DNA from: an uncultured cyanobacterium | GTDB taxonomy: Bacteria > Cyanobacteriota > Cyanobacteriia > Leptolyngbyales > Leptolyngbyaceae | Assembly: GCA_963766075.1 (NCBI GenBank) | Contig: CAVYAN010000072.1 | Location: 32,001-96,000 of the forward strand | DNA: 64,000 nucleotides | Reading direction: 5' to 3' | In this document: positions 47,401 to 64,000 of the stretch, piece after piece | How positions within the stretch are numbered: position 1 is the stretch's first letter | Layout: every line of letters begins with the position of its first letter | Made by a program: the position numbers and the translations under genes | Notes under the pieces: generated by a model | What the model was told of the DNA's origin: nothing | What the model saw: only the letters and a program-made list of their open reading frames with translations | The model's database searches: none

Positions 47401-50385
47401 CGGCCCCAATCGTGCCGTTCCCCGCGTCCATTAAGCGGTACTGTGCCACATCCCCGGTTTGCCGCCGGTTGACAAAGGCATAGTAGTCGCCCGTGACGGG
47501 ACTGCGGTATAGGGCAGTGCCGTAGGCGCTGCGGGTTGACGTGGAATAGGGTGGGTTGAAGGGGGCCGCCTGGAACAGGGTGCCCAGGCTGGGGCTGGTG
47601 ATGTCCACTAGGTACTTGCCATCGGTGGCATTGGGATTGATCTTGAAGATCACCAGTTTGTCGTTGTTGCGATCGCTCGCAACGGCAATGTCAATGGCCT
47701 GCCCACCTAACTTAAACCCGTACTGCAAGTCCACATTGTTGTAGCGAACGCTGACGGGGTTGACCGTCTGCAAGCCGGGATTGATGGTCTGCAACAACTC
47801 GCCCGCCAGGTTATAGACCTGCAGACCGCCATTCTTGATCGCCGTGACCACCAAACTGTTAGCCGGGTTAGTCGCATTGACGTAAATCGCCGGATCATCA
47901 GAATCGGCCCGTTGGCTAAAGGGCAAGGTGGAATCATCCAGGTTGGCCTTGTTGGTTTCCAGCGCCGGAGCGATCGTGGGTATAAATCAGCGCCCAAGGC
48001 CAAAATTTGGGTAAACTGGGTGGCGCTAAAGTTGTTGTCACTCACCAGCACAATCGATTGACGACCATCCGCTAGTTTGGGGCCAAATTCGATGCCTTCA
48101 ACGTTATCTAAACCAGTGCTCAGTTTGAGATCATCCAAGTTCAGCACAAGGCGCTTTTGCACCGGTTGGATAGCAGCACGTTCAGCCGAGGTCAGGCGAG
48201 TGAGCGAGTCGTACGCGCTAATGTCAGTCGCCCCTTGCAGGCTGATTTCGTAAATCCGAATTGTGTTACCTTTGCCAACGGCAAACGATCGCTCCAAGGC
48301 TAAAAATGTGCCTCGGTTATCCAGCGCCAACAGATCGACTAGGCCGTTATCGGCAGACCCCGTGACCGGATCCGGCGCTTTGGCGATCGCTGCCACAGGG
48401 TAGAGATATTCTTTCTCAGGCTGCCCAGTCACCAAGTTGTATTGGATGATTCGCGCTGCGCTACCACTGGTGAGCGTCGAAATCGGTCCATCCTGGAACA
48501 AGGCACTTTCTGTTGCCGAATACAGGGTCTTTTGGTCGGGCGTAATCGTTAAGCTCTCGAAGGCTAAGTTATTGCGGACTCCAGCCATTTGCAAGTCGCC
48601 AGAATCTACCACACCATTCCCATTTGTGTCTTGAACCTTGGGCAAAAACTTAGTGGGCAAGGCCAGAGTGCGAATTTCCTGGCCCGTGGTTAGATTGAAT
48701 TCTTTAATGAACGGATTGGTGACGCGGGTCGCGCCCAAATCGGGGCGAACTTCCCCTTCCGAAGACACAAAGACAGTCCCATTCTGGGTTAATGCAATGT
48801 CTTCGGGATCCAGGCTAAAGCGAGGAAAGGTATTGCCATTGGTATCCTTCAACGTCGTCACGCCCGTGAAGGTCGCACCATTAGTCCCCAAGGTCGCTGG
48901 GTTTGCCGTGAAGGTATAGAAGCGGGCAGGGGCAATATCGGAGCGATCGTCGGAAATCGCATAGTATTGGTTCTTCACAGCATCATAGGTAACGCCCGAC
49001 AGGCCCCCCAGGGGAGTAGGTGCACCATTGACACTGCCAGCAGTTCCCGCAGGAATAGTGCCCGTGGGAATTACAGTCTGTCCCAAAAAGCCGGGGGTGC
49101 CGACAACCGTTTTGCCTGCTTCAGTTGCACCAACCTGGATATCCGCATAGACCAAACGGTGATCGGAGCTGGGATAGCCGTTCAAGAACGTTGGCGCAAA
49201 GGTCCCCACAGGCGTAAACGTGGGATCGGTATTCAATGGCCAAAACACGCGGGAATTGGTAATTGTCAGGTCCGTGGAGGGCAGCACATAATCTGCCCGC
49301 AGGTTACCCGGCGTGGTATCGGCAAAGTCAGCGGTATCAAACGCTGGGTTGCCCGTCTGGGTGGCATTAGCTCCTCCCTGCAAAGCATTTTGCTGCGGCC
49401 CGCCAAGGCTGGTTGGAATAAAATTGGTGTTGATGTTGGGACTTTGCAGGAGTTGCAGCACGGCCCGATTGTAGCTGTCACCATCGTAGGGATCGGCATT
49501 TTGATCGCCCATGATCACAAAGCTGGCCCCCGCCGCTAAACCGCCCAGGTTGCCTTTGTCGTCGTAAATGTAGCTGCCTTGGCCGGGGGCAACGTAGTCT
49601 GCCCAAAAGCGAATTTCATCGGCGTTGCGCTTGCCGTTGCGATCTTCCGTTCCATCAAAGACGGGCGGCGTGGGATGGCTCACCAGCGCATGTACCGTCT
49701 GGCCATTGATTTGAATCGGCACATCCCAATGGCTCTTGGAGGAGAGGCGCAAAATCGCCTGCTCTTCTGTAGAGTAAAAGCCACCGAGGTTTTCATTCAC
49801 GGGGGTCGCGGGGTTATCCAACGTAGGGTCATTGGTTAGCAAATTTCCCGGCATATCCTTCCACAGAAAATTCTGGAAGGTCCGGATATTGGCCACGTCA
49901 ATCGGATACTTTGACAGCAGCACCAGGCCAAACTGTCCGGGGAAATTGCCAAACCCAAAGGCATCGTCGCCATAGCCCGCTGCCCCAATGCCATCCGTCA
50001 CCGTGGTGACCGTCGCCCCGTTGTTGTTGAGGTCAAAACCCGTGGGAATCCCAGTATTTGAGGGGGCGATGTAGAAGTAGGGATAGCTAACCGGAGCCGC
50101 ACCATTTTGGGCGATCGCCAAAAAGTTCTGCTGAAACAGACGAACAGCCTCGGCAGGATTGGCGGCAAAAAAGTCAAACTCGTTAATCAGCAGGACATCG
50201 GGGTTGGCCCGTTGAATGATTTCGGCCACATTTCTGACCTGTTGCACCCGCACGGCCTGCGAAATAGTCGTGCCCCGGCTGTCGGGAATGGCGGGATTAG
50301 AGAAATCATTGATGATTTGCCCCACCGCATTGCGGTTAAGGGAGGCATTAAATTGAGAGAACCGAACGGTAGTGGTAGTAACCAT
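44430..50385 (-). CDS. Multidomain secreted phosphatase (EEP + phytase-like/esterase + beta-propeller phytase + PhoD + RTX Ca-binding repeats), about 1985 aa; two 1-base frameshifts (about 47983 and 45256)
   Basis: Track ORFs 47707..50385, 45146..47926 and 44430..45206 join as ADL[I]PTIAPALETN and TQ[K]LTVTTYGIDAY. Motifs: EEP SHPTPPVFDG/GDQNAD/SSDHRLV; phytase-like GGLSG/SDDR/NLAFESL/SDNNF; phytase DDPAIY/NNVDL/EGMVVD/DVEGL/SSQGDN; PhoD GDTIYAD/DDHEVTND/LDTR/ADVH; GxGND repeats. Confidence 0.88.
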
Positions 50386-50783: not shown

Positions 50784-51227
50784 TTGACAACGGTAACTTT
50801 GCAAAGACGGTGTGACCGAAATCGCAAGCGATCGCAGCGGCGGGCCATAAATTGCCCGATTCATGGCTGTTCTCTACACAGCGTGAGCCAGAAGCATCGA
50901 TTATTCCTGGATCAGGCCATGCAATTGCAGCAACGGGGTGTCAGTCGCCGCAATGCCCTCATGCTGATTGCCACCCAAACCACCGTAGCCTTAAACGATG
51001 AGTGGCTCGAAGCGTTTTGGTGCGAGCAATGCCAATCGACCGAATGGTTTCATGTCCACAAAGTGGGGGCACGTGATTATCAACTCTCTCTCGCGCCATC
51101 CCCGCTATGGCAACAGGTCATGGGAGTGGTGGACCCCCGTGGCAACCCGTCAGTCGGTGAGTTTACTCGCAGACAGTCGCGCATGGTGGGGTATGGCGGC
51201 GTGAAAGACTTTAGGTTTGTCAGATGA
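50784..51227 (+). CDS. Hypothetical protein with a putative Zn site (CPIH...CEQC) heading the EPS locus
   Basis: ORF with CxxH and CxxC pairs and an Arg-rich N-terminus; AGGAGG precedes the start. Confidence 0.7.
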   Translation: MTTVTLQRRCDRNRKRSQRRAINCPIHGCSLHSVSQKHRLFLDQAMQLQQRGVSRRNALMLIATQTTVALNDEWLEAFWCEQCQSTEWFHVHKVGARDYQLSLAPSPLWQQVMGVVDPRGNPSVGEFTRRQSRMVGYGGVKDFRFVR

Positions 51228-51320
51228 GTCAGGAACTTCTTCGAGGTTTCTCAGTCAGCTTTGCAGGGGTGCGTTCAATGAGTTGCTCAATCAACATCAT
51301 CAATGGATTAATCCCTAACC

Positions 51321-52754
51321 ATGGTACCTCTAACGTTACAGGCTACGTATCCGCGCGATGTGCGATCGCCCGCCTTTGGCCAACTGGGCAAAGCGGTTTC
51401 CATGAAAGGAATGCGGGTGATTGCTTTGCTAGCACTGGACATTTTCTCGCTGTGTCTAGCAGAACTCATTTCAGGACTGTTGGGAACACCTTGGTCAACA
51501 TCTTGGTCGATGCCGAGTCATCTCCTAGCCGTGTTGTTTCCCATGCTCAGCATTCAAGTCACGCTGCTGATCGCCGGTAGTTTTTATAAGCCTGGAGAAG
51601 CATGGCGAGACTATACCGGCGTGGCGAAGTCTCTGACCCTCGGCGCAATTTTACTGCTGTTGTTTCTCTATTTTGATCATCCCAGTCAACTGATTTCGCG
51701 ATCGCAGTTCCTTTGGTTTTGGATCTTGAGTATTGCCTTGGTCCTGACCGGACGCTTCTGCATCAACTGTGGGATCAACCAATTACGCCAACGGGGATAC
51801 GCCCGCTACGCTGTCTTCTTGATTGCCGACGCGGAGCACCGGGAGCGATCGGTGGATATCATTCAATGCCGGAATCAGTATCACTTGGCAGGCACCAGTG
51901 GCGCAGCGGCACTCGACGCCGATCAGCAGGAAACCACCCTAGAACACCTGCGGCAACTGGGAGTGGCGGAGGTCTTTGTGTCCTGGAGCGCGATTCAAGA
52001 TCGCCTGTATTTGTGCTGGCAGTTTCAGGCTGCCGGGATCCAACTTCATGTGATTCCCGACAATCTCGATACGCTGTTGCAAAGCTCAACTTCGTGGGCC
52101 TTAAGCACACCACCCACGCTAAGTTTTACGCCGCAATTGATTACCAACAGTGATTTTTGGATTAAGCGCATCTTGGACTTCTGTGGGGCGCTGTTGATAT
52201 TGACGATTTTCTCACCCCTGTATGGGCTGATTGCGTTATTGGTTAAGTTAGATTCTCCAGGGGCCGTGTTTTATCGCCAAACGCGCATTGGCCTGCATGG
52301 CCAACCTTTCCAAGTCTGGAAGTTTCGCACCATGGTCACCAATGCCGATCAACTGCAAGCGAACCTAGAAGCCCAAAACGAATCCAAAGATGGCATCTTA
52401 TTCAAATTAAAGTCTGATCCACGAATTACGCGGGTGGGGAAGTGGCTGCGGCAATATAGCCTGGATGAATTGCCCCAGATCGTGAATGTACTGCTAGGCG
52501 AAATGAGTTTCGTCGGGCCTCGGCCCTTGCCGGTGCGCGATGTTGAGAAGTTTTCCCAGCACCATTTTGTCCGACATCAAGTATTGCCAGGAATTACTGG
52601 ACTTTGGCAGGTTTCCGGGCGATCAGATATTATTAACTTTGAGGATGTGATTCAGTTGGATTTGACTTATATCCAAAATTGGTCACTGTGGTTAGATTTA
52701 CGCATCTGCCTGCAAACAGTTAAGGTCGTATTACAGAAGACCGGGGCCTACTAG
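51321..52754 (+). CDS. Priming glycosyltransferase (WcaJ/WbaP-type polyprenyl glycosylphosphotransferase)
   Basis: N-terminal TM helices; KFRTM, DPRITRVGKWLRQYSLDELPQ, MSFVGPRP, PGITGLWQVSGR. Confidence 0.93.
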   Translation: MVPLTLQATYPRDVRSPAFGQLGKAVSMKGMRVIALLALDIFSLCLAELISGLLGTPWSTSWSMPSHLLAVLFPMLSIQVTLLIAGSFYKPGEAWRDYTGVAKSLTLGAILLLLFLYFDHPSQLISRSQFLWFWILSIALVLTGRFCINCGINQLRQRGYARYAVFLIADAEHRERSVDIIQCRNQYHLAGTSGAAALDADQQETTLEHLRQLGVAEVFVSWSAIQDRLYLCWQFQAAGIQLHVIPDNLDTLLQSSTSWALSTPPTLSFTPQLITNSDFWIKRILDFCGALLILTIFSPLYGLIALLVKLDSPGAVFYRQTRIGLHGQPFQVWKFRTMVTNADQLQANLEAQNESKDGILFKLKSDPRITRVGKWLRQYSLDELPQIVNVLLGEMSFVGPRPLPVRDVEKFSQHHFVRHQVLPGITGLWQVSGRSDIINFEDVIQLDLTYIQNWSLWLDLRICLQTVKVVLQKTGAY

Positions 52755-53100
52755 ATGTCTAAAGAGCATGTCTAAAGAGCCCGCATCTACCGGATCGGGG
52801 CTGGGGGATGGCCCCTTGCCGCTCCTGCCCAATACCACTACGCGCATAGGGTTCCCCTCGTCCCGTCTCTGCCAAAAGACATTCCCACAGCACGCGCCCA
52901 AAGCATTCTCTGAGTTCATCCCTGGATTGAGTTCATTTCTGCATTAAGTGTATTCCTGGATTGGGTTTATTCCTAGATTGATTGGCCATCGGCATCGCCC
53001 GTCGCCATCGCTGGAAGCACGCAATCTACAGGCTTGTCAGCCCATCGGAAATCAACTCAATCTATCGCCTAGTCCACATTATCGCCATTCAGCCAATATC

Positions 53101-54666
53101 ATGACAGATTCAACTGATTGCACTCCAAGGCTTCCCAGTGACGCGATGATGACCGCGCCCACCGAGACCAGTCCTGCGCCTGAGCAGCTTGCCGTCCCGC
53201 TCAATCTTGAGGGCACACCCGACTCTCGGGCGATCGCCCAGGATTTTCTGGAACACTATGAATCCTTTGTCGATGGGGCTCATGATCATTGGCTGTCTTG
53301 GCAAACACCGCCCTTCTACGTGGAGGATACCCCGGTCACCGAATCGCGGGTCTGGGCTAAGGCGGGCGTAGCGGGCATGGTGGGGCTAGCTGCCATGACT
53401 GCCGCCAGTGTGCTGCTGCCACAGGATACCGTGTCCGCGATCGCCCAAGTGCCCCAAAAGCTCCCCTCGCCTGCGGTCGCACCGAATTCTGCGACCTCCT
53501 CACCCCAAGTGGCACTGCCCGCCCTACCGAGCATAACGGCGATCGCCCCCGCCGAAGTCCTGCCGCAGGTTTCGTCTTTCACCGCCACAGCCGCAGACCC
53601 CGCCCCAACATTGACCATTCCGGCAGTAAGCAGTCCAGCAATTCGCTCCCCCTGGCCCGCTGGACAAGTTATTGGGCAGCAACCGTCTGGTGTGGCACAG
53701 GCGGGCCTGCCCCAGGCTCAATTCGCCTTAACAAAATTACCGCAGCTCGCATTACCCAAAATCAACTTACCTCAGATTCAATCGTCACAAATTCAGTCGT
53801 CACAGATTGAGTCAACAAAGATTGAGTCAACAAAGATTGAATCAACAAAGATTAAATCAACAAAGATTGAATCGTCACAGGCCAATCTATCGTCGGTACA
53901 ATTACCACAGCCTGAATCGTTCCAGAGAAAATCATCCCTAGGCGAATCATCCACAACAGCATCACCACAGCCGGCATTATTACGGGAGATAGGTGCCCCC
54001 TTGACCATTGGCACTCCCCAAGCCATGCCATCGACAGAATGGTCACCAGGAAGCGGCCTCAATGCCATCCAAAGTCCTTCGTCGGCAGAGCCTGAGCCCA
54101 CCACCACCTTCCACCCCCCAGCAGAGCCGAGTACTGAAAAACAGCCAACGCTGGCTGCACCGGGGGCCTCCGGGGTGTTGCCACAGCCCAGCACACCCGT
54201 TGTTCCTGAGTTCACCGAAACCCACCTAAATCAAACGGGGAATCCGTCTTTGGCCGCAATCAAACTGCCGGGAGTGTTCTCAATCAATCCATCGCCACAG
54301 GTCCATCAGGCGATCGCCACGGCCCAGACGTTGCAAGACTTCCTGAAACTATCCCAGAAAATCCCCGAAAACGCCCAGGCGGTGCTATCGCTGACGCCCC
54401 AAGCAGCGCTAGCTGTACCCAATGCGCCGATGGTAGCGAATCTACCTGCCACCGGTGAGCAGAGCGGCCCCCAGGATCAGACAGGATCCCAGAATCAGAC
54501 CCCAGCCACTGAGCACTCTCTACCGTCATTCCAGGTCTTTCGATTGCCAGCCACCTTATATCAAAAAGCCTGGATCGCGCTAACGCAGACCAATGGCCAA
54601 GCCGCTGTACCCACGCATGGCTTCATCGACTATCAAGAACGAGCCATTGTTTTGCCCTCTCTCTAA
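53101..54666 (+). CDS. Hypothetical single-TM Pro/Ser/Thr-rich protein in the EPS locus (track start 52948)
   Basis: Long ORF; hydrophobic segment AGVAGMVGLAAMTAASVLL; low-complexity body; compact C-terminus PTHGFIDYQERAIVLP. Confidence 0.7.
   Translation: MTDSTDCTPRLPSDAMMTAPTETSPAPEQLAVPLNLEGTPDSRAIAQDFLEHYESFVDGAHDHWLSWQTPPFYVEDTPVTESRVWAKAGVAGMVGLAAMTAASVLLPQDTVSAIAQVPQKLPSPAVAPNSATSSPQVALPALPSITAIAPAEVLPQVSSFTATAADPAPTLTIPAVSSPAIRSPWPAGQVIGQQPSGVAQAGLPQAQFALTKLPQLALPKINLPQIQSSQIQSSQIESTKIESTKIESTKIKSTKIESSQANLSSVQLPQPESFQRKSSLGESSTTASPQPALLREIGAPLTIGTPQAMPSTEWSPGSGLNAIQSPSSAEPEPTTTFHPPAEPSTEKQPTLAAPGASGVLPQPSTPVVPEFTETHLNQTGNPSLAAIKLPGVFSINPSPQVHQAIATAQTLQDFLKLSQKIPENAQAVLSLTPQAALAVPNAPMVANLPATGEQSGPQDQTGSQNQTPATEHSLPSFQVFRLPATLYQKAWIALTQTNGQAAVPTHGFIDYQERAIVLPSL
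53776..53880 (+). repeat. In-frame 15-bp tandem repeat x7 encoding IQSSQ/IESTK units
   Basis: ATT(C/G/A)A(A/G)TC(G/A)(T/A)CA(C/A)A(A/G) units directly visible. Confidence 0.9.
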
Positions 54667-54712
54667 ATCACCCTGAATCCTACCATCACATCTCACCACC
54701 CGGACTACGCCC

Positions 54713-56884
54713 ATGGATACTACTGACTTCTCAGAAGAATTAAATTTTGGCAAATACTGGCTCGTGCTCAAACGGCGTTGGCTGCTGATTGCATTGATTT
54801 CCGGCACGACGTTAGGATTGGCCACGGTCTGGACCCTCCGACAACCTCCCATTTACGAAGCAACAGGGAAATTGTTATTTAAAGCCAACAAAACCTCCAA
54901 CCTGATTGGGATTCAGGCCGATTCCGGCAAACTGGAAGCCCTGACCCAAAAAGGCGATCCGCTGAGCACAGAAGCGGAAATTTTGCGATCGCAGCCGATC
55001 ATCGAAGCCGCCCTAAAAGGGTCAAATTTGCGCAATTCCCGAGGCCAACGCCTAGATCCAAAGGCTGTAGCGGGTAGACTCAGCGTTAAGCCAGTTGTGG
55101 GCACCGATATTTTACAAGTTAACTACACAGCCAATGATGCCCAATTGGCGGCAGCGGTGATTAATCAAGTTATGAAGGCGTATCTCAACAACAATGTTGT
55201 GGTCAATCGAGCCGAAGCCGTCGCCGCCCGAAAGTTTATTATCGATCAATTGCCCGCTACGGAAGCGGCGGTCAATCGGGCTGAAGCTAATCTACGGCAG
55301 TTTAAAGAAGCTAATGGCATTGTGGTGCTCGATCAAGAAGCGATCGCTTCAGTCCAAGGACTATCAGCCCTCGACAAAGAAATCACCACAGCCCGAGCGG
55401 CCCTCGGCAAAGCCAATGCCCAAACCTCGGCCCTGCGTAGCCAAGTGGGAATGGATGCCCGCACTGCCCTAACCCTGAATTCTTTAAACCAGTCTGACGG
55501 CGTTCAAAAAGCACTCACCGAGTGGCAGTTGGTGCAGTCGCAACTGGCTAAACAAAAGACGCTGTACCGTGATGGCTATCCAGTGGTGTCGCAGTTACAG
55601 CGACAAGAAGCTGCTGCCAAGTCTGTTTTACAGGATCGGGTCGCTGGCATTGTGGGGCAGAATATCACGGTCGATCCCGGCAGTCTCCAATTGGGCACCA
55701 CGCGTCAAGAACTCGTCCTTTCCCTGGCGCAGGCGGAGACCGAGCGGTTGGGGTTAGCCAATACCCTAGATTCCCTGACCCAATCCCAGGCGACCTTTGC
55801 GGCGCGATCGCAAAGTATTCCGGCCTTAGAAAAAACCCAGCGACAACTCGAACGAAAACTCGATGCCGCCCAAACCACCTACAAAACGCTCTTGACCAAA
55901 CTCCAAGAGGTCCAAGTCACGGAAAATCAAACCATTGGCAATGCCCGAATTGTGGCCACTGCCGATGTTCCCGAATTTCCGATTGGGCCGAAGGTGTTGA
56001 TTAATTTGCTAGCGGGCGGGATCGTGGGCGTGCTATTGGGCATATCCGCCGCGTTTCTGCTGGACTATGCGGATCAGTCTGTTAAAACCTTGGGTGAAGC
56101 CAAAACGCTGTTTCCTTATCCCTTATTGGGGGTGATTCCGACGATCGCCACCGCGAGCAAAGCAGCAACGGCCTCCGCCATGCCCCAATTGGTCACCCGC
56201 GATCGCCCCGATTTCGGGGCACAGGAAGCCTACCAAATGCTCCAGGCCAATTTACGCTTCTTGACCTCCGATCAGCCTTTGCGAGCGATCGTCGTCACCA
56301 GTACCATGCGTCAGGAAGGCAAGTCCACCGTAGCTGCCAACTTAGCCACCGCCATGGCCCAGGGACAACGGCGGGTACTGTTGGTGGATGCCGATTTGCG
56401 GCATCCCTGCCAGCACCATGTTTGGGATATCAATAATTTGATTGGCCTGAGCAATGTGATTGTAGGTCAAGTTGAATTCACACGAGCCATCCAGTCCGTA
56501 ACCTCCCATTTGGATGTGCTATCAGCAGGGGTCACGCCCCCCAATCCCATTGCCTTACTCGATTCCCAGCGGATGGCCAGCTTGATTGCCACAGCAGTGG
56601 AACAGTATGACTTTGTGATTTTGGATGCCCCGGCGTTATCGGGCACGGCAGATGCCACAGTCCTCAATAAAATGACCGATGGCAGTTTGCTGGTGGTGCG
56701 CCCCGGAGCCATCCAGGCCAGTGCTGGCAAAACGGCCATCCAGTTTCTAGCCCAGTCCGGCCAAACGGTGTTAGGCATGGTGATTAATCATTTTGATGTG
56801 CGAAAAGAACCCGATAGCTATTTCTACTACACCCAAGAGCAACAATTGCAGACTCCAGTCAGTGCTGATGCCGTGAATGGGTAG
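54713..56884 (+). CDS. wzc: Polysaccharide co-polymerase / BY-kinase (Wzc/GumC)
   Basis: Two TM segments around a coiled coil; EGKST, VDADLRHP, ILDAP, C-terminal Tyr cluster SYFYY. Confidence 0.93.
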   Translation: MDTTDFSEELNFGKYWLVLKRRWLLIALISGTTLGLATVWTLRQPPIYEATGKLLFKANKTSNLIGIQADSGKLEALTQKGDPLSTEAEILRSQPIIEAALKGSNLRNSRGQRLDPKAVAGRLSVKPVVGTDILQVNYTANDAQLAAAVINQVMKAYLNNNVVVNRAEAVAARKFIIDQLPATEAAVNRAEANLRQFKEANGIVVLDQEAIASVQGLSALDKEITTARAALGKANAQTSALRSQVGMDARTALTLNSLNQSDGVQKALTEWQLVQSQLAKQKTLYRDGYPVVSQLQRQEAAAKSVLQDRVAGIVGQNITVDPGSLQLGTTRQELVLSLAQAETERLGLANTLDSLTQSQATFAARSQSIPALEKTQRQLERKLDAAQTTYKTLLTKLQEVQVTENQTIGNARIVATADVPEFPIGPKVLINLLAGGIVGVLLGISAAFLLDYADQSVKTLGEAKTLFPYPLLGVIPTIATASKAATASAMPQLVTRDRPDFGAQEAYQMLQANLRFLTSDQPLRAIVVTSTMRQEGKSTVAANLATAMAQGQRRVLLVDADLRHPCQHHVWDINNLIGLSNVIVGQVEFTRAIQSVTSHLDVLSAGVTPPNPIALLDSQRMASLIATAVEQYDFVILDAPALSGTADATVLNKMTDGSLLVVRPGAIQASAGKTAIQFLAQSGQTVLGMVINHFDVRKEPDSYFYYTQEQQLQTPVSADAVNG

Positions 56885-56958
56885 TTTTGCTTGCTGATTC
56901 AATGGGTTGTTAAGGAGCTTGGTTATTCAGGAGTTGGGTTGTTAAGGAGCAAAGGTTA

Positions 56959-58011
56959 ATGGTCAAGACAAAGCAATTTTTAAGTTCGGCGTGGGCGATC
57001 GCCGTTGTTCTCGGCGCAACGGCGATTTGTCCGCCGCCAGCCCAGGCCGTCACCCTGGAGCAGCCGTCACCAAAGACGATCTATTCCGGTTACCTGCTGG
57101 GTGCAGGAGATCAAATTGAAATCTCGGTCCCTGGCTACCAGGATTTTACCGGACCCCGCGTGATTCTACCCGATGGCACGATTTCCTTACCGGTGATCGG
57201 CTCGGTGATGGCCATTGATCGCACGTCTGATCAATTAGCGAAGGACCTTCAGGCGAAATTAGGATCATTTTTAGTGGATCCGATCGTCACTGTCAGCTTG
57301 TCTACGTTACGTCCCGTAGTGGTGAATGTAGCGGGAGAAGTGCAACGTCCAGGCCCACTTCAGCTTCGGAGCCTGACCACGACTACGTTTAAGACCTCGG
57401 GCAGTAGTGTGACCAGTGGACTGGAGGGCGTGCCCACACTCAGCTCAGCTCTCACGGAAGCGGGCGGTGTGACCCGCAATGCTGACATTCGTCAGGTAAT
57501 ATTGCGGCGTACCCTCCCCGGAGGGCAGACCACCAGCGTGACGGTGAATCTGTGGGATGCAATTTGGTCTGACAAGCAACCCGAAGATCTGGTGCTGCGG
57601 GCGGGCGATGCCATTTATGTTCCCAAGTTACCCGAGGGCGCGGTCTTCGATCGCCGATTGCTGGCGCGATCGCGCTTGGCCCCGGCCACGGTGCGGGTGC
57701 GCGTCGTCGGCGAAGTCAACCGACCGGGAGAACTGCTGATTTCACCGGACAGTACCTTATCGAGTGCGATCGCCAATGCGGGCGGTTTTACCAAGGATGC
57801 TAGACCCAGGGAAGTGCGGTTAGTGCGGCTGAATGACCAGGGGCAAATCGATACGCAGGCAATTGATTTAACCCGCCTCAATGACACGCTCCAGGTCCAG
57901 GAAGGAGATGTCCTGGTTGTCCCGGAGAAAGGGCGATCGTCCTTCCTGCGGGTGTTAGGTCAGGTGTTGAGTCCCGTCGGCAGTTTGCTGAATATTATCC
58001 GGGGTTTCTGA
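56959..58011 (+). CDS. wza: Polysaccharide export protein (Wza-like; Poly_export and SLBB domains)
   Basis: YLLGAGDQI, PDGTISLPVIG, V.GEV.RPG and AGG SLBB repeats. Confidence 0.9.
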   Translation: MVKTKQFLSSAWAIAVVLGATAICPPPAQAVTLEQPSPKTIYSGYLLGAGDQIEISVPGYQDFTGPRVILPDGTISLPVIGSVMAIDRTSDQLAKDLQAKLGSFLVDPIVTVSLSTLRPVVVNVAGEVQRPGPLQLRSLTTTTFKTSGSSVTSGLEGVPTLSSALTEAGGVTRNADIRQVILRRTLPGGQTTSVTVNLWDAIWSDKQPEDLVLRAGDAIYVPKLPEGAVFDRRLLARSRLAPATVRVRVVGEVNRPGELLISPDSTLSSAIANAGGFTKDARPREVRLVRLNDQGQIDTQAIDLTRLNDTLQVQEGDVLVVPEKGRSSFLRVLGQVLSPVGSLLNIIRGF

Positions 58012-58320
58012 TCGGCGAGGCCCTTTCCCCAGAGCTTCAGGTCTCTCGTCAACGCTCAATCCACCCCTCGGCATTCGGCGCGGGGAAGACTTGATATTTT
58101 CAATTTTTCCGCCAAGGAAATAGTCCGGACTATTGCGTGAAAATATACGGCAATGAGTTAGAACCCAAATCGGTTTAAAGCTTAGGTGAACTTCCGGAAG
58201 TTACCAAGATAGGGTGAAATCTATATACATAATGAACGTAATAGGGAACACCTTTTAACCGACGACAAAATAGCCAACAGCAAAAATAGAGAATTAACCT
58301 GGAATAGTTTTTCATGCACC

Positions 58321-58398
58321 CGGTTACCCTGCGGGAAGCAAGCTAAGACTCCACTCAACCCTAATTGTCCCAGTGGGCTGAGCGTAGTCGAAGCCCAC
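58321..58398. repeat. Second small dispersed repeat composite (TACCCTGCGGGAAGCAAGCTA plus the GTGGGCTGAGCGTAGTCGAAGCCCAC hairpin)
   Basis: The core matches 24358..24378 at 19 of 21 positions. Confidence 0.7.
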
Positions 58399-58609
58399 GA
58401 CAGGGTACCACTGCCAGATCTTTGTTTGCCCAGTTAATCGCTACCAATCCCTAGCCCGCAACCTGAAATTATCGATTAGACATCTACCCCAAAAGCGTAA
58501 CGCTGGACGCATTTTCACCCCGGCCTTGTCATTCTACTATCTTTCATTCCAGCCGACTATAGGGCTACACGATCGCAGAACGCTTCTCTTACTTCATTAG
58601 CACCTGGAA

Positions 58610-58924
58610 ATGAACCCGCTAACATCCAATTTTGAACTCTTAAAAACGGCTTCGGTGGTTGCATCCAGCGACCAGATTTCATCTGACTTGGGGGGCGAGT
58701 CTGTCATCCTCAATTTAAAGTCTGGCACCTATTTCGGCTTGAATGAAGTGGGCAGCCGGGTGTGGGAGCTGATTCAATCGCCCCGCCGCTTTGCCGACCT
58801 GTCCATGACGCTTTGCCATGAGTATCTAGTGGACTCTGAGGTTTGCGATCGCGACTTGATGACACTTTTACAAGAGCTGCATACAGCAGGCTTAATTCAG
58901 GTGAGTCATGGAGAAGCTACGTAG
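58610..58924 (+). CDS. Lasso peptide RRE (PqqD-family, B1 protein)
   Basis: DLGGESVILNLKSGTYFGLNEVGSRVWELI ... L..EY.V ... D...LL.EL...GLI. Confidence 0.92.
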   Translation: MNPLTSNFELLKTASVVASSDQISSDLGGESVILNLKSGTYFGLNEVGSRVWELIQSPRRFADLSMTLCHEYLVDSEVCDRDLMTLLQELHTAGLIQVSHGEAT

Positions 58925-59363
58925 AAAACTGCATCGGCTGCGGCAGATAGGCGGACACGGTGTCTGGCTATTGATGATGGCGTTTATCGTGCTGGGAGCC
59001 GTGCGATTGGGGCTTTGGCTGTTGCCCTTTCATCGGGTGCTGCGGGGGTGCGAGACAGTCAGCCAACTCTCGATTCTGCGCCGCCAAGCTTGCTTCGCGG
59101 TGGCCGATCTCATTTGGGCGGTGAATTGCAGCAGTCGCTACATGCCGGGTGGCGTGAAATGTCTAGCCCGCGCGTTAACCACAAAGGTACTGATGCAGCA
59201 GCAAGGGTATGTTCCAGAGTTGAAAATTGGTGTCCGCAAGAGCAGTCAAGGTCACCTAGAGGCCCATGCCTGGATTGACTATAACGGTCACATCGTGATG
59301 GGCAATGTAATGGATTTACCGCGCTATCTGCCGTTACCCTCGCTGGGAGGGATACAACCATGA
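58908..59363 (+). CDS. Lasso peptide leader protease (B2, transglutaminase-like)
   Basis: KCLARAL (catalytic Cys), LKIGV, AHAWID; overlaps both flanking genes. Confidence 0.92.
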   Translation: MEKLRRKLHRLRQIGGHGVWLLMMAFIVLGAVRLGLWLLPFHRVLRGCETVSQLSILRRQACFAVADLIWAVNCSSRYMPGGVKCLARALTTKVLMQQQGYVPELKIGVRKSSQGHLEAHAWIDYNGHIVMGNVMDLPRYLPLPSLGGIQP

Positions 59364-61379
59364 GTGGGATTGTTGGCTTTTATCACTTCAATCCGCCTCG
59401 CTTAAACCCGCCCGCGATCGCCACCAAGGCCCTGCAACACATGGTGGCAGCCCTAAAGCATCGGGGGCCAGATGGATCAGACGTCTGGCAATCGGGCGCA
59501 ATTGGGCTGGGGCATTGTCTGCTACGGACAACGCCCGAGTCTTTGGTGGAATCAATGCCCTATCACCACAACAATTTAGTCATCACCGCCGATGCCCGCA
59601 TTGACAATCGTGAAGAATTGCAGGTTCTTTTAGGGCTATCCCCGCAGTCCTTGGCAAAAATGCCCGATAGCCAGTTTATTTTAGCGGCCTATGAGAAATG
59701 GGGAACAGCCTGTCCCGAATATCTTTTGGGTGACTTTGCCTTTGCCATTTGGGATGGCGATCGGCAACAGCTTTTCTGTGCGCGGGATCACCTGGGGGTG
59801 AAGCCATTTTACTACTATGCCTCGCCTCAACTCTTTGTTTTTGCCTCAGAAATTAAAGCGCTATTTTGTTTGCCAGAAGTGCCCCGGCGGCTGAACGAAG
59901 TGCGGATGGGCGACTTTTTGGCCCTGAGTTTGGATGATCTGGTCCTGACCAGCTATCAAGATATTGTGCGGTTGCCGCCCGCCACTGGCATGATCGTGAA
60001 TGCAGCGGGTGTCCGACTGCAAACCTACTGGACGCTGGATCCCCAGCGGGAGTTGCGTCTAGACTCTGATGAAGCCTATGCCCAAACCTTTCGGCATATT
60101 TTTACTGAAGCGGTTCGCTGTCGGCTGCGGAGTGCGTTTCCCATCGGCAGTCACCTGAGCGGCGGCTTGGATTCGTCGTCGGTGGCCTGTGTGGCTCGTA
60201 ATCTGTTGCAGGCGGAGCAGCAACCATTGCATACGCTGTCTTTAATCTTTGACGCCGTGCCACAGTGTGATGAGCGTTCCTATATCAATACTGTGCTCGC
60301 CCAAGGCGGCATGATCCCCCACTTTATTCATGGCGATCAGTTCAGCGCTTTGTCCAATCTGGATGAAGTGTTTGAGTATGAAGATGAGGCCCTGCTGGGT
60401 CCGAGCCATAGCTATCCCTGGTATCTGAATCAGTTGGCCAGTCAACACAATTTGCGTGTCTGCTTAGATGGTTTCGATGGCGATACGGCGGTGGGACATG
60501 GCGTCCGACGGCTGACGGAATTGGCGCTGCACCTGCAATGGGAGACCTTTGCCCATGAAGCCCGCAGTGTGGCGATTCACTTTGCGGGGTTGGGAGCGTC
60601 GCCCCAGGGCTTACTCGTGAACCATGGGTTTCCAGCATTGCGGCAGTTTGCGCGGCGGGGGCAGTGGCTGAAGTTTGGGCGATCGCTGAATCAAATCCAC
60701 CGCCATTTCAACATTTCACGCAAGGCACTCCTGAAGGAATGCGGCCTCAAAGCCTTGATTCCCGCTGGGCTACAACGGCACTGGCAGCGGCGACAGACAT
60801 CATCCCCGGCCCGTCTTAGCCCCCTTGGCGAATCGGGCCTTTGCCAAGCGGATTGGCCTGGAGCAACGTCTGGGGAAATTGAACACCGCTGTCCCCATGA
60901 CCGTGCGCCAAGAGCAGTGGCAAGCCCTGACCCAGGGCTGCATGGCCTACACCCTGGAACAGGTCGATCAATTTGCCGCCCGGTTTGGAGTGGAAATGCG
61001 CCATCCGTTCATGGACAAGCGGCTAGTGGAGTTTTGCTTGGCGCTCCCGGCAGAGCAAAAGCTGTGCGACGGCTGGACGCGGATGATTATGCGGCGAGGG
61101 TTGGAGGGAATATTGCCGGAGGAAATTCAGTGGCGGGGCGGCAAAATGAATGCTACGCCTAACTTTGTGGATGGGTTGGTGAATCGCGATCGCCAGCTTC
61201 TGGACGCGGTCATGACGTCTAAACTGACGTATCTCCAGGATATGGCGGATTTAGAGGTCCTGACTGCGGCTTACCAGCGCATTACGGCTCAGTCCCCCGC
61301 TCCAGAGGCCGATCACATCCTGGTGTGGCAAGGGGCGAGTCTGGCCGCTTGGCTAGAGCATCACGACTCGATGTTCTAG
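59360..61379 (+). CDS. Lasso peptide isopeptide-forming cyclase (asparagine-synthetase-like); +1 frameshift in the C5 run at 60820-60824
   Basis: MSGIVG (Ser in place of the glutaminase Cys), HRGPDG, RDHLGVKP, LSGGLDSS, DGFDGD. Track ORF 60825..61379 supplies RHPFMDKRLVEF...LPEEIQWR..K. Confidence 0.9.
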
Positions 61380-61532
61380 GTCATGGGCTCAGGCGAGCGG
61401 GTTCAAGTTTCGGGGTGTATTTGGAGTGGATTCAGGGGTGGATCTGTAGGGTTTTCATTAGATTTAACCTCTGCCCATTCAACGACAATGGATTGACGAT
61501 AGCAATTTAAAAAGAAAAAAGAGGAAAAACCT

Positions 61533-61694
61533 ATGAAACCCTACAATCGGCCCCAACTGACGGTCTACGGCACGGCCAAAACGATCACGCAAGGGTTTGA
61601 TCACCACAATGATAAGGAGATGGCTCCGCTCGTGGCAGAAGCAATGCACGACCGCGACCACCGCCCCCGGAACGGTTCCTGCGATTTCGGTTGA
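61533..61694 (+). CDS. Lasso peptide precursor A1 (53 aa; absent from the ORF track)
   Basis: MKPYNRPQLTVYGTAKTITQ|GFDHHNDKEMAPLVAEAMHDRDHRPRNGSCDFG. YxxPxL leader, Thr at -2, Gly1, Asp7/Glu9 acceptors; GAGGA RBS. Confidence 0.85.
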   Translation: MKPYNRPQLTVYGTAKTITQGFDHHNDKEMAPLVAEAMHDRDHRPRNGSCDFG

Positions 61695-61844
61695 TGCGCG
61701 CTTGAAAAGTTGGGCAAGCACCCTTGGCAGGCCCAAATAAAGCATGGAAGCGATTCCTGTCTTGATCTGGGCCGTAAGTCCAATCAGAAAGGGGCACTAC
61801 CGGACCATGTTTGACATTCAATCTACGAAAATTAGGAGACTCCT

Positions 61845-62069
61845 ATGAAGAAGTACAAAAGTCCCCGGTTGGTGACCTACGGCAACGTAGAAACCTTAAC
61901 CCAAGCCAATGGAAACGGCTCAGCTAACGATTTCTTTATCTTTACGGGTGATATTACTGGTCAGGTTCCAGGCTCAACCTTTGGAGCATCTGGATCAGGT
62001 AACGTAAATGCAACACCACCTTCCATAAAAAATAGCCTGTTTCTAGCCTTAGAAGCGTTAATACGTTAG
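61845..62069 (+). CDS. Lasso peptide precursor A2 (74 aa)
   Basis: MKKYKSPRLVTYGNVETLTQ|ANGNGSANDFF... YxxPxL leader, Thr at -2, Asp9; AGGAG RBS. Confidence 0.88.
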   Translation: MKKYKSPRLVTYGNVETLTQANGNGSANDFFIFTGDITGQVPGSTFGASGSGNVNATPPSIKNSLFLALEALIR

Positions 62070-62425
62070 CGGATTGGAGGGTTATCTACGGATACACCCA
62101 AAACCAAGACCAGGGACCAATACATTGGGGTAGTTTGGGGGAGGCAATTGGCACTTGCCCCGTGCCAATTACTCAACGCCAGAGAGCCACTTTTATTGGT
62201 CCCTTTTCTCACTCCATTAGTTCTTTTCCAGCCTATTCTTTTCCACCCTATTGATTCTATTGAATCGCTCAGTCATTCGTTATCAACGTGCATTACAGAA
62301 GACGATGTAACACAGATGCTTTCCAAAATTGAAGCAAATAACACGAGGCCATGAACCTAATCCCTAGATAGTTTATTGAATCAAAACTCAATTCGACTTG
62401 TAACTTTATGTAAAACTAATAATCT

Positions 62426-63394
62426 ATGAAAATTTATCATGCCTATAACTTAGTGATTTATTCAGAGCTATCCATCCCAGAACTGACGCCCTATTCTGGA
62501 GCTTCATCAACGGATTGGCCTCGCCGATCCTCTGACGTGCTAGCCACTGATGTGCCCTTTGCACCCGATGCCGATGTCGTCATTCGCTTTGGCAATGTCC
62601 AGCGGGAAGCCGACCACTATGTTGACCCCACGCGAGACGATCCAAGCTACTTGTTTGTCCGTGAGGATGGCGTGGGCGCATTCTTTATCCGTCAAGGTTG
62701 TGAGATTGTGATTGACCCAGTGAAACATTTCGATGCGGGCTACCTGCGAACCTTGTTGCTGGGTCCGGTTTTTGCAATTTTGCTCCGGCAGCGGGGGCTG
62801 TTGGTACTGCATGCCAGCGCTGTCAAAATGGGTGACTGTGCCGTGGCGTTTCTAGGGGGATCGGGCTGGGGTAAATCAACCCTGGTGACGGCCTTTCACC
62901 AGCGGGGAAATACGGTGCTGACGGATGATGTAATGCCCTTGCAGATGGATGGAGGGTTGTCGCTGGTGCTGCCATCCTATCCCCAATTTAAATTGTGTCC
63001 GGATGCGGCAGCGTCCTTTGGCAAAGAAGAAGAACTGGTACCCATTTTTCAGGGCGCGGGCAAACTCGCCTACAGCATTACCGATGGATTTCAGCACACC
63101 CCACTGCCACTCCAGCACATTTATATTTTGGGCAAAGGCGATCGCCATGCCATTGTTCCTGTTGCCCCACAACTGGCATTTATGGAACTGGTGCAACACA
63201 CCCGGGCCATGATTAGCCTGACTCAAGCCCCATTTCTGGCCGCGCATTTTCAACTCTGTACCCAACTGGTGAAAACGGTTCCGGTTTCGCGCTTTATCCG
63301 CAGGCCCGCCCTGGAAGAGTTGCCCCGCCTGATGGACATGATCGAGGCGGATGTGGCGCAATCGGTAAAACCAGATTTGGTCGGAGTGCCCTAG
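62426..63394 (+). CDS. HPr-kinase-like kinase of the lasso cluster
   Basis: LVLHASAV, Walker A GGSGWGKST, LTDD. Confidence 0.85.
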   Translation: MKIYHAYNLVIYSELSIPELTPYSGASSTDWPRRSSDVLATDVPFAPDADVVIRFGNVQREADHYVDPTRDDPSYLFVREDGVGAFFIRQGCEIVIDPVKHFDAGYLRTLLLGPVFAILLRQRGLLVLHASAVKMGDCAVAFLGGSGWGKSTLVTAFHQRGNTVLTDDVMPLQMDGGLSLVLPSYPQFKLCPDAAASFGKEEELVPIFQGAGKLAYSITDGFQHTPLPLQHIYILGKGDRHAIVPVAPQLAFMELVQHTRAMISLTQAPFLAAHFQLCTQLVKTVPVSRFIRRPALEELPRLMDMIEADVAQSVKPDLVGVP

Positions 63395-63457
63395 GCATCG
63401 GCCCCAGATGCCCCTACCCCTCAATTCGCTTAGTTCACTCTCTAGAAGCCGCCCCCC

Positions 63458-64000
63458 GTGAACGCCACCCTCCGCCATGCCAAAACCATCCTCCGCCAGG
63501 GACACAACACTGGCTCCCTAATTTGGGCCGCTGCCCGCTACTGGAGCTGTGTCTGGGTGGGCCTATTGGTGATTCAAGGCATCCTGCCCGGAATGACCGT
63601 ATACCTAACGCGGCACGTCGTCGATAGCCTGGTCGGAGCCGTGGGTGCAGGCATCTCCTGGCACAGTATCCAATCGGTGCTGCTGCCCGCCAGTGTGATG
63701 GCTGGAGTCCTGGTTTTGCAGCAGGTGCTGGATGGCGTCAGCAGTTGGGTCAATACGGCCCAGTCGGAACTGATTCAAGACCATGTGAGCGATCTGATTC
63801 AGAAAAAATCCGTCGAAATTGACTTCTCTCGCTATGACAGCTCTGACTACTATGACCAGCTCGAACGGGCGCGGGGCGGAGCCGCAGGGCGATCGCTGGC
63901 CATGCTGGGCAATGTCGGGGGCATCGTGCAAAACAGCATTACTCTGCTCACCCTGGCCGCAATTTTATTGCCCTATGGCCTCTGGCTGCCGATCATTCTG
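63458..64000 (+). CDS. ABC exporter (fused permease/ATPase type), N-terminal part; runs off the right edge
   Basis: Open frame from GTG 63458 to the window end: LIWAAARYW...LLVIQGILP...YLTRHVVDSL...YYDQLERA, typical of exporters in kinase-type lasso clusters. Confidence 0.8.
   Translation, partial: MNATLRHAKTILRQGHNTGSLIWAAARYWSCVWVGLLVIQGILPGMTVYLTRHVVDSLVGAVGAGISWHSIQSVLLPASVMAGVLVLQQVLDGVSSWVNTAQSELIQDHVSDLIQKKSVEIDFSRYDSSDYYDQLERARGGAAGRSLAMLGNVGGIVQNSITLLTLAAILLPYGLWLPIIL

Follow-up and report, generated by a model that had tools for sequence, protein, structure and literature searches.

A kinase-type lasso-peptide gene set behind wzc and wza in a cyanobacterium of the Leptolyngbyaceae, likely a dispensable accessory of exopolysaccharide loci

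The pseudomycoidin (psm) and paeninodin (pade) lasso-peptide clusters combine split B1/B2 genes with an HPrK-like kinase carrying an Asp-Asp pair, an ABC exporter and a nucleotidyltransferase with a DxD motif, their phosphorylation site being a C-terminal Ser (PMC6993621; here and below, papers are cited for those parts of them that were accessible). In pseudomycoidin, the phosphorylated C-terminal Ser receives one or two hexoses in a PsmN-dependent manner (PMC6993621, PMC11912497). The bsf cluster of the Gram-negative Bradymonas sediminis also holds a kinase and a nucleotidyltransferase, and its kinase BsfK modifies a non-terminal residue, ring Ser3 of BsfA (PMC10368454). Paeninodins have been described as restricted to Bacillota, their RREs favouring a Trp leader motif, and Popov et al. 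(2026) located paeninodin-like and LPP clusters inside capsule loci of Bacilli and reported co-upregulation of lasso and exopolysaccharide (EPS) genes in Paenibacillus, the roles being stated as unknown and a role in biofilms being speculated upon, untested (PMC13381572); in the accessible parts of that work, a single RRE row of the supplement is all that concerns cyanobacteria. Furthermore, Zyubko et al. mentioned a lasso cluster of Stanieria that includes a glycosyltransferase. The current work concerns a lasso-peptide gene set located behind wzc and wza in a stretch of 64,000 nucleotides (nt) from an uncultured cyanobacterium of the Leptolyngbyaceae (GenBank assembly GCA_963766075.1, contig CAVYAN010000072.1, positions 32,001 to 96,000 of the forward strand), this whole stretch being named "the window".

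The gene set is a genuine kinase-type lasso-peptide set: an RRE, a transglutaminase-like B2 and an asparagine-synthetase-like cyclase are present, each lasso gene occurs as a single copy in the genome, and family scans recovered, in the same order and on the + strand, all genes named in an earlier interpretation of the letters alone (the sequence-only reading). By its sequence, the cluster is placed in a cyanobacterial lasso family already present in NCBIfam (NF033528, NF033535, NF033537), given that A2, B2 and the cyclase score above cut-off and that the order RRE-B2-C-A-kinase-ABC-nucleotidyltransferase is that of most cyanobacterial relatives; it differs in its His-rich precursor A1, which scores under the cut-off, and in being co-oriented behind wza. 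The sequence-only reading had called the architecture paeninodin/pseudomycoidin-type, which holds for the split B1/B2, the kinase and the exporter, but not for the order of the genes, the motif in the leader or the C-terminal Ser. The leaders in the window carry YxxP instead of the Trp motif favoured by paeninodin RREs (PMC13381572), and the Ser conserved in the clade of the window is internal, unlike the C-terminal phosphorylation site of psm and pade (PMC6993621). Membership of the paeninodin family was considered and rejected on the basis of the YxxP leader, the lack of a C-terminal Ser and the cyanobacterial clade; by analogy, the pathway would work like that of pseudomycoidin while standing outside that family. 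In comparison with the bsf cluster, Thr(-2) is kept, whereas the conserved Ser lies 12-35 residues past the ring rather than at ring position 3 (PMC10368454). The capsule-locus clusters of Bacilli share with the window an RRE, a kinase of the HprK-like type, an NTP transferase and an exporter resembling MsbA, but belong to Bacillota, and the window has a cyclase and no SipW-like peptidase (PMC13381572). In the openly accessible literature, no paper was found that deals with a lasso product from cyanobacteria, with the G-S-x-D motif or with the wzc slot described below, and the statement of the sequence-only reading that no characterized product is known for this arrangement in cyanobacteria still stands for that literature. 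Co-localization of lasso and capsule genes is not a new idea, having been published for Bacilli (PMC13381572); the cyanobacterial case appears to be new.

Lasso clusters at polysaccharide loci

Considered across genomes, the neighbourhoods of related clusters indicate that the lasso gene set is likely a dispensable accessory of EPS loci. A contig scan retained the best 78 of 585 lasso loci, 55 of which were labelled cyanobacterial, and 40 were left following removal of 15 loci shorter than 15 kb. Of these 40 cyanobacterial loci (≥15 kb), 18 contain a wzc gene and 25 contain one or more named glycan genes, the corresponding figures for non-cyanobacterial lasso loci being 4/16 and 9/16. The chance expectation of a nearby wzc is 2.1% per locus (89 wzc matches in 16 genomes), and among loci for other peptides that are made by ribosomes and modified after translation (RiPPs) in the same 16 genomes, wzc was near 0 of 5 LanM and 1 of 10 microviridin-type loci (18/40 lasso versus 1/15 control RiPP loci, p=0.01). 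In the wzc tree, from which pieces under 600 amino acids (aa) were left out and in which long branches were flagged, 14 lasso-adjacent rows represent one orthologous clade, while the others fall into at least six further lineages (at least seven in total), among them those of this window, of Rhodothermales and of Pleurocapsa. The sequence-only reading had held that a lack of enrichment next to EPS genes would speak against its proposal; what was found is a strong enrichment involving several separate wzc lineages. In six loci from several phyla (L108, L118, L123, L125, L130 and L136) the RRE lies directly behind a priming transferase or a glycosyltransferase, and in one further genome (G250) glycosyltransferases and a sulfotransferase are located directly upstream of the lasso locus. 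The arrangement of the window, co-oriented behind wza, was seen in none of the best 78 of 585 related loci. STAND-type NTPases (NB-ARC/NACHT) occur near lasso or EPS genes in L091, L122, L134 and L202, and we take them to resemble the XssQ regulator of the sulfated EPS of Synechocystis.

One orthologous wzc locus occurs both with and without the cassette. This wzc is present in 73 of the 121 genomes of one family of genomes (f7, mostly Nostocales as labelled), and the flanks of 40 of 75 wzc matches, picked for contig room, were inspected; two of these were too short and 38 were scored, on the understanding that genomes may overlap with those of the locus sample and that genera repeat. The slot was found to hold a lasso cassette in 19 cases, a nucleotidyltransferase alone in three and no lasso gene in 16. 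In 17 of the 19 filled slots the cassette sits between wzc and a run of glycosyltransferases, on the strand opposite to this run; some of these runs include a Wzy-like gene and others do not (the protein is polytopic, and the Atlas gives PF04932 as a lead in 12% of one cluster). Among the empty slots, some have wzc joined straight to the operon and some contain other glycan cassettes, while cyclases of different clades occupy the same slot. Since slots occur filled, partial and empty, the polymer genes need no peptide, yet the slot has been filled repeatedly: the link to EPS genes is genuine, but it is not obligatory. The suggestion of the sequence-only reading that the peptide may act with the capsule is supported in part, its placement being enriched; as a glycan carrier or anchor that the locus cannot do without, the peptide is contradicted by the half of the orthologous EPS loci that are without the cassette, and intact EPS operons that lack it rule out the obligatory carrier as the best explanation.

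Two lasso clusters stand in tandem in the same slot in L074, L083, L086, L097, L121, L127, L133 and L201, often pairing one internal-Ser type with one C-terminal-Ser type. The lone nucleotidyltransferases next to wzc are full-length at 379 aa (L221:2830-3966, L226:2772-3908 and L227:2924-4060) and represent either deletion relics or enzymes serving the polymer itself.

Precursors, kinase and nucleotidyltransferase

Precursor A1 consists of a YxxPxL...T-Q leader and a His-rich core of 33 aa with Gly1 and Asp7/Glu9, the only Ser/Thr/Tyr of this core being Ser29 (codon 61677-61679) within N-G-S-C-D, while the A2 core has the form Ala1...Asp9-F-F-I-F with Ser31 (codon 61995-61997) as the aligned tail serine. 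Both precursors thus possess an acid at core positions 7-9 as well as YxxPxL and Thr(-2). A1 ends in Gly and A2, as assembled, in Arg, neither having a C-terminal Ser; one related contig has an extra nucleotide after 62014, which renders the frame of the last ~17 residues of A2 doubtful. An alignment of 42 precursors was assembled (two from the window, 39 beside cyclases of the same clade and one from the second locus of genome G144, whose cyclase is not in the cyclase tree), near-duplicates being left out. Across these, Y, P, G and T of the leader are invariant, while within the core, conservation of 90% or more is limited to two positions, namely ring acid 9 (Asp in 41, Glu in one) and the tail Ser (Ser in 41, Thr in one), the latter mostly within G-S-x-D and all other core positions being variable. 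GSx[DN] was present in 31 of the 42 cores, as compared to a mean of 2.6 and a maximum of 9 in 2000 shuffles, and a C-terminal Ser in only one. The conserved internal tail Ser is, from this pattern, the likely target of the kinase. In the cyclase tree (99 rows), the window cyclase belongs to a supported cyanobacterial clade of 33 rows, its terminal branch being 0.68 versus a median of 0.29; trees were made with FastTree and are unrooted, with long branches flagged and the window cyclase read through its break with X.

The precursor of genome G250 (L041:1162-1371) shares with the atypical A1 a His-containing tail pattern, which suggests a His-rich precursor subtype that might bind metal. Near-identical cores of 21 aa located beside lasso cyclases in L054, L061, L134, L147 and L173 have no Asp/Glu at positions 7-9, their first Asp being at 11-12, and their product would have either a ring of unusual size or no lasso structure.

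The kinase of the window has no family match above cut-off, and a PDB sequence search returned nothing for the single kinase sequence; a profile of its 84 homologues, however, matches PDB HPr kinases (E 1.8e-9), and its model (predicted local distance difference test, pLDDT, 91.7) matches PEPCK/HPrK folds. His129, the Walker A residues G-K-S at 149-151 and Asp167-Asp168 are invariant in the 84 homologues. Identity to the window kinase is 39-53% for kinases beside internal-motif precursors (n=25), 31-39% beside C-terminal-Ser precursors (n=22) and 25-44% for the remaining 29, a split by precursor type that co-inheritance alone could also produce.

The nucleotidyltransferase gene matches PF14907 and keeps the DxD motif, although it is partly duplicated and broken near its 3' end, and its profile retrieved nothing in the PDB sequence search. 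The fold was modelled on an intact homologue (L082, pLDDT 91.6), of which MenT1 is the best match (Z 12.5, root-mean-square deviation, rmsd, 2.9, 180 aligned), followed by ANT(2'')-Ia (Z 11.3) and LnuA (Z 10.2), while the match to FKRP, which bears on a possible kinship with the LicD/FKRP-type phospho-transferases, is weak (Z 6.3, rmsd 3.9, 146 aligned). The modelled fold is thus closest to nucleoside monophosphate (NMP) transferases, a likeness which neither shows nor excludes glycan ligation. Of the two decorations that the sequence-only reading had envisaged, phosphorylation and glycosylation, both are plausible given the intact kinase motifs, the conserved target Ser and the presence of a PsmN-class enzyme, which is damaged in this assembly. 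In L042, L048, L054, L087 and L134, which have no EPS neighbours, a PNP_UDP_1 phosphorylase replaces the nucleotidyltransferase after the ABC gene.

Gene parts and integrity of the window copy

The individual genes are listed in Table 1. Direct contact between the lasso and EPS genes, implied by the term "abutting" in the sequence-only reading, is not what the window presents: the lasso genes are co-oriented behind wza, but a gap of 598 nt with a ~150-nt dispersed repeat separates wza from the RRE. A ~40-nt core of this repeat occurs in about 15 places of the genome, inverted-pair copies are found on contig C29, and one related strain lacks 52 nt of the repeat. In 57950-58700 and 61350-62480, promoter and terminator scans found no more candidates than in shuffled sequence. 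The lasso genes contain HIP1 at an ordinary density (8 sites in 8.4 kb versus 1.37 per kb genome-wide), and the G+C content at third codon positions (GC3) of the enzyme genes is likewise ordinary (0.57-0.71 versus 0.60 +/- 0.06 for the genome); the genes are therefore long-resident, as had been proposed from their HIP1 sites. Cys85 and His120 of B2 are presumably its catalytic residues.

Table 1 Features of the polysaccharide and lasso genes (window positions; those beyond 64000 are window-equivalent)
Feature	Position	Strand	Evidence or remark
Cys/His-rich (Zn-motif) open reading frame (ORF), 147 aa	50784..51227	+	no Pfam/NCBIfam family
Priming polyprenyl glycosylphosphotransferase (WcaJ/WbaP type)	51321..52754	+	TIGR03025 390 bits (cut-off 295.6), PF02397
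Pro/Ser/Gln-rich low-complexity protein, one predicted transmembrane segment, start uncertain	52948..54666	+	no family
Wzc polysaccharide co-polymerase / tyrosine autokinase	54713..56884	+	TIGR01007 above cut-off, Wzz, GNVR
Wza/OPX polysaccharide export protein	56959..58011	+	PF02563 + SLBB
Dispersed repeat in wza-RRE gap	58293..58441	not assigned	long copies on C59, C40, C29, C5
Lasso RRE (B1, PqqD fold)	58610..58924	+	PF05402 above cut-off; NF033536 76.8 bits, below cut-off 80
Lasso leader peptidase B2	58908..59363	+	NF033537 100 bits (cut-off 33), PF13471; Cys85, His120 present
Lasso macrolactam cyclase C (asparagine-synthetase-like), frameshifted as assembled	59360..61379	+	NF033535 in two frames
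Precursor A1	61533..61694	+	NF033528 22.4 bits, under 33-bit cut-off
Precursor A2	61845..62069	+	NF033528 41.3 bits, above 33-bit cut-off
HPrK-like peptide kinase, intact	62426..63394	+	kinase-family profile, predicted fold
ABC exporter, N-terminal part in window	63458..64000	+	extends to 65339, frameshift near 64564
PF14907 nucleotidyltransferase, damaged	about 65399-67065, past window		after ABC exporter; PF14907 match

Three of the lasso genes are broken as assembled. The cyclase is read in two frames (59360-61162, corresponding to model positions 1-477, and 60825-61379, corresponding to 487-668) with the break near 60797-60798, where three other runs (X1, X2 and X4) gave low-depth contigs that are one base shorter, while at the exporter break one related contig (X1) is without the extra base. 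These related-strain contigs are single, of depth below 5 and error-prone, though three agree at the cyclase break; since they are without the extra bases, close relatives appear intact at both positions. None of them bridges wza to the RRE, the longest spanning 58034-58923. The nucleotidyltransferase gene contains a diverged tandem part-duplication of 347 nt (26 differences across all codon positions), the 5' copy of which is uncovered in all four related-strain runs, and changes frame about three times within ~130 nt near its 3' end, damage that is denser than the assembly background. This background amounts to frameshifts in 11 of 96 conserved loci of the assembly (12 in 119 kb; 9/94 when the cyclase and the exporter, which are among the 11, are left out) versus 0 of 66 control loci, which corresponds to a frameshift every 10 kb or so of conserved coding sequence, at a completeness of 84.9%. 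Considering that the assembly is indel-prone genome-wide, its broken genes are not to be read as pseudogenes without the sequencing reads. The RRE, B2 and the kinase have no breaks and retain every invariant residue; the copy in the window is nevertheless a poor experimental model on account of its broken genes. A large secreted protein gene elsewhere in the window (44430-50385, - strand) is split over three overlapping ORFs, probably by further assembly frameshifts, and we take its product to contain phosphatase/phytase-like and glycine-rich calcium-binding repeat segments.

Of the parts of a complete Wzx/Wzy-dependent EPS locus, a priming transferase, Wzc and Wza are present. The sequence-only reading had pointed beyond 64000 for the missing partners, of which the nucleotidyltransferase was found there, whereas no wzx, wzy or glycosyltransferase was found downstream of the cassette, the genes after the nucleotidyltransferase being unrelated; such downstream genes are thereby ruled out as part of the locus. 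Other contigs of the same genome contain three wzx and five wzy-type matches. The wzc of the window is a separate lineage which groups with 15 relatives in the wzc tree, and its sister locus L180 has the order Zn-ORF, wzc, GT2, wzy, wzx; in the window, the lasso cassette occupies the place of the repeat-unit genes of these relatives. A B2 match is present in only 4 of 36 genomes of the same family.

The Cys/His-rich ORF of 147 aa, which in the Atlas falls in hypothetical cyanobacterial clusters only, has homologues in 22 of 61 genomes, and of 12 homologue loci that were fetched, at least 10 lie amid polysaccharide genes, making it a conserved gene that accompanies EPS/capsule loci in cyanobacteria. 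It stands at or near the head of ABC (kps-like) and Wzy-type loci (L160-L171, L180 and L181) and may have a role as a regulator or assembly factor. The Pro-rich membrane protein contains short five-residue tandem repeats; no homologue of it was found in any fetched locus, and over part of its gene a related-strain contig shows net in-frame indels.

Possible roles of the peptide

Considering that related cyanobacterial clusters are often built into polysaccharide loci, the peptide probably serves the slime layer as an optional accessory, and the reading that we tentatively prefer, at somewhat less than even confidence, is that of a phospho(glyco)-lasso peptide secreted as an optional accessory of the exopolysaccharide. 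By comparison with characterized relatives, the RRE would bind the YxxPxL leader, the kinase would phosphorylate Ser29 of A1 or Ser31 of A2, and B2 would cleave after Thr(-2)-Gln. The cyclase would then close Gly1-Glu9 (or Asp7) in A1 and Ala1-Asp9 in A2, giving nine-residue rings, the PsmN-class enzyme would place a hexose on the phosphate, and the ABC pump would export the peptide. From context only, the phospho(glyco)peptide may draw on the sugar-nucleotide supply of the locus and may end up in the sheath or capsule, either free or tethered, where it would tune this layer without being required for polymer synthesis. The sugar step may be lost here because the nucleotidyltransferase is damaged in this assembly.

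Several observations weigh against a functional tie of this kind. In a 400-genome sample drawn without bias, from which the window genome was left out, wzc lay within 10 kb in only 3 of 15 loci, several of them on short contigs, and this does not differ from the 1/15 of the control RiPP loci (Fisher p=0.60). In the contig scan, 22 of 40 loci are without wzc and 15 of 40 without a named glycan gene, and the counts are not independent, given that 14 wzc rows form one orthologous locus. Sixteen of the 38 orthologous slots hold no lasso gene, the slot cassette is not co-transcribed with the EPS operon as it lies on the opposite strand, and none of the 15 relatives of the window's own wzc has lasso genes in its fetched flanks. 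The association of the nucleotidyltransferase with EPS context is a trend only (13/16 versus 9/18, p=0.08), and in the window the cyclase, exporter and nucleotidyltransferase are all broken as assembled.

The product may instead be an ordinary phosphorylated lasso peptide, a signal or antagonist, riding in EPS hotspots that swap cassettes and having no functional tie to the polymer, which we regard as a real, if less probable, possibility; a variant covered by the same estimate has the cyclase descending from asparagine-synthetase-like amidotransferases of EPS loci. Gain and loss are patchy, with a cyclase above cut-off in 14 of 401 genomes of the phylum and 26 label changes on the cyclase tree, and Popov et al. 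read patchy lasso distribution as typical of biological conflict genes (PMC13381572). Other cassettes use the same slot, many lasso loci have no EPS neighbours, and lower-scoring cyclase-family matches are also found near wzc (G116:C7, about 8 kb). A mere passenger does not sit easily, however, with the rarity of LanM and microviridin-type loci by wzc, with independent placements in several phyla in which the RRE directly follows a priming transferase or glycosyltransferase, or with the intact nucleotidyltransferase kept alone in three slots. That the window copy is instead a decaying relic, its frameshifts being real and no product being made in this genome, appears unlikely: the three broken genes, the 347-nt duplication and the long terminal branch of the cyclase would fit such decay, but the assembly is indel-prone, related contigs are without the extra base (three in the cyclase, one in the exporter), and the RRE, B2 and the kinase have retained their invariant residues. 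We give very little credence to an obligatory primer or carrier, in which peptide-Ser-phosphate-hexose would be the anchor on which the polysaccharide is built or tethered. The chemistry is known, a hexose on phospho-Ser being a phosphodiester-linked glycan stub, and the nucleotidyltransferase model shares its fold, weakly, with FKRP; yet many genomes have the same EPS operon intact and no lasso gene with it (for instance L203, L220 and L222), the window locus has its own priming transferase, and the best fold matches are NMP-transferases. Returning to the optional accessory, a more specific version, which we consider improbable, would make the lasso peptides of the clade covalent EPS substituents, joined via the phosphorylated Ser of G-S-x-D and a PF14907-made phosphodiester to a repeat-unit sugar and displayed on the sheath as a swappable, protease-proof tag set by the wzc slot.

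What kinase-type lasso peptides do biologically has been described as an open question (PMC13381572). To this question the current work adds a specific site of predicted modification, namely an internal Ser of the tail, whereas the characterized cases are modified at a C-terminal or a ring Ser, and a natural series in cultured filamentous cyanobacteria in which one wzc locus is found with the full cassette, with the nucleotidyltransferase only, or with nothing. If it is true that the peptide is tied to the polymer, this would represent a new way to decorate bacterial capsules.

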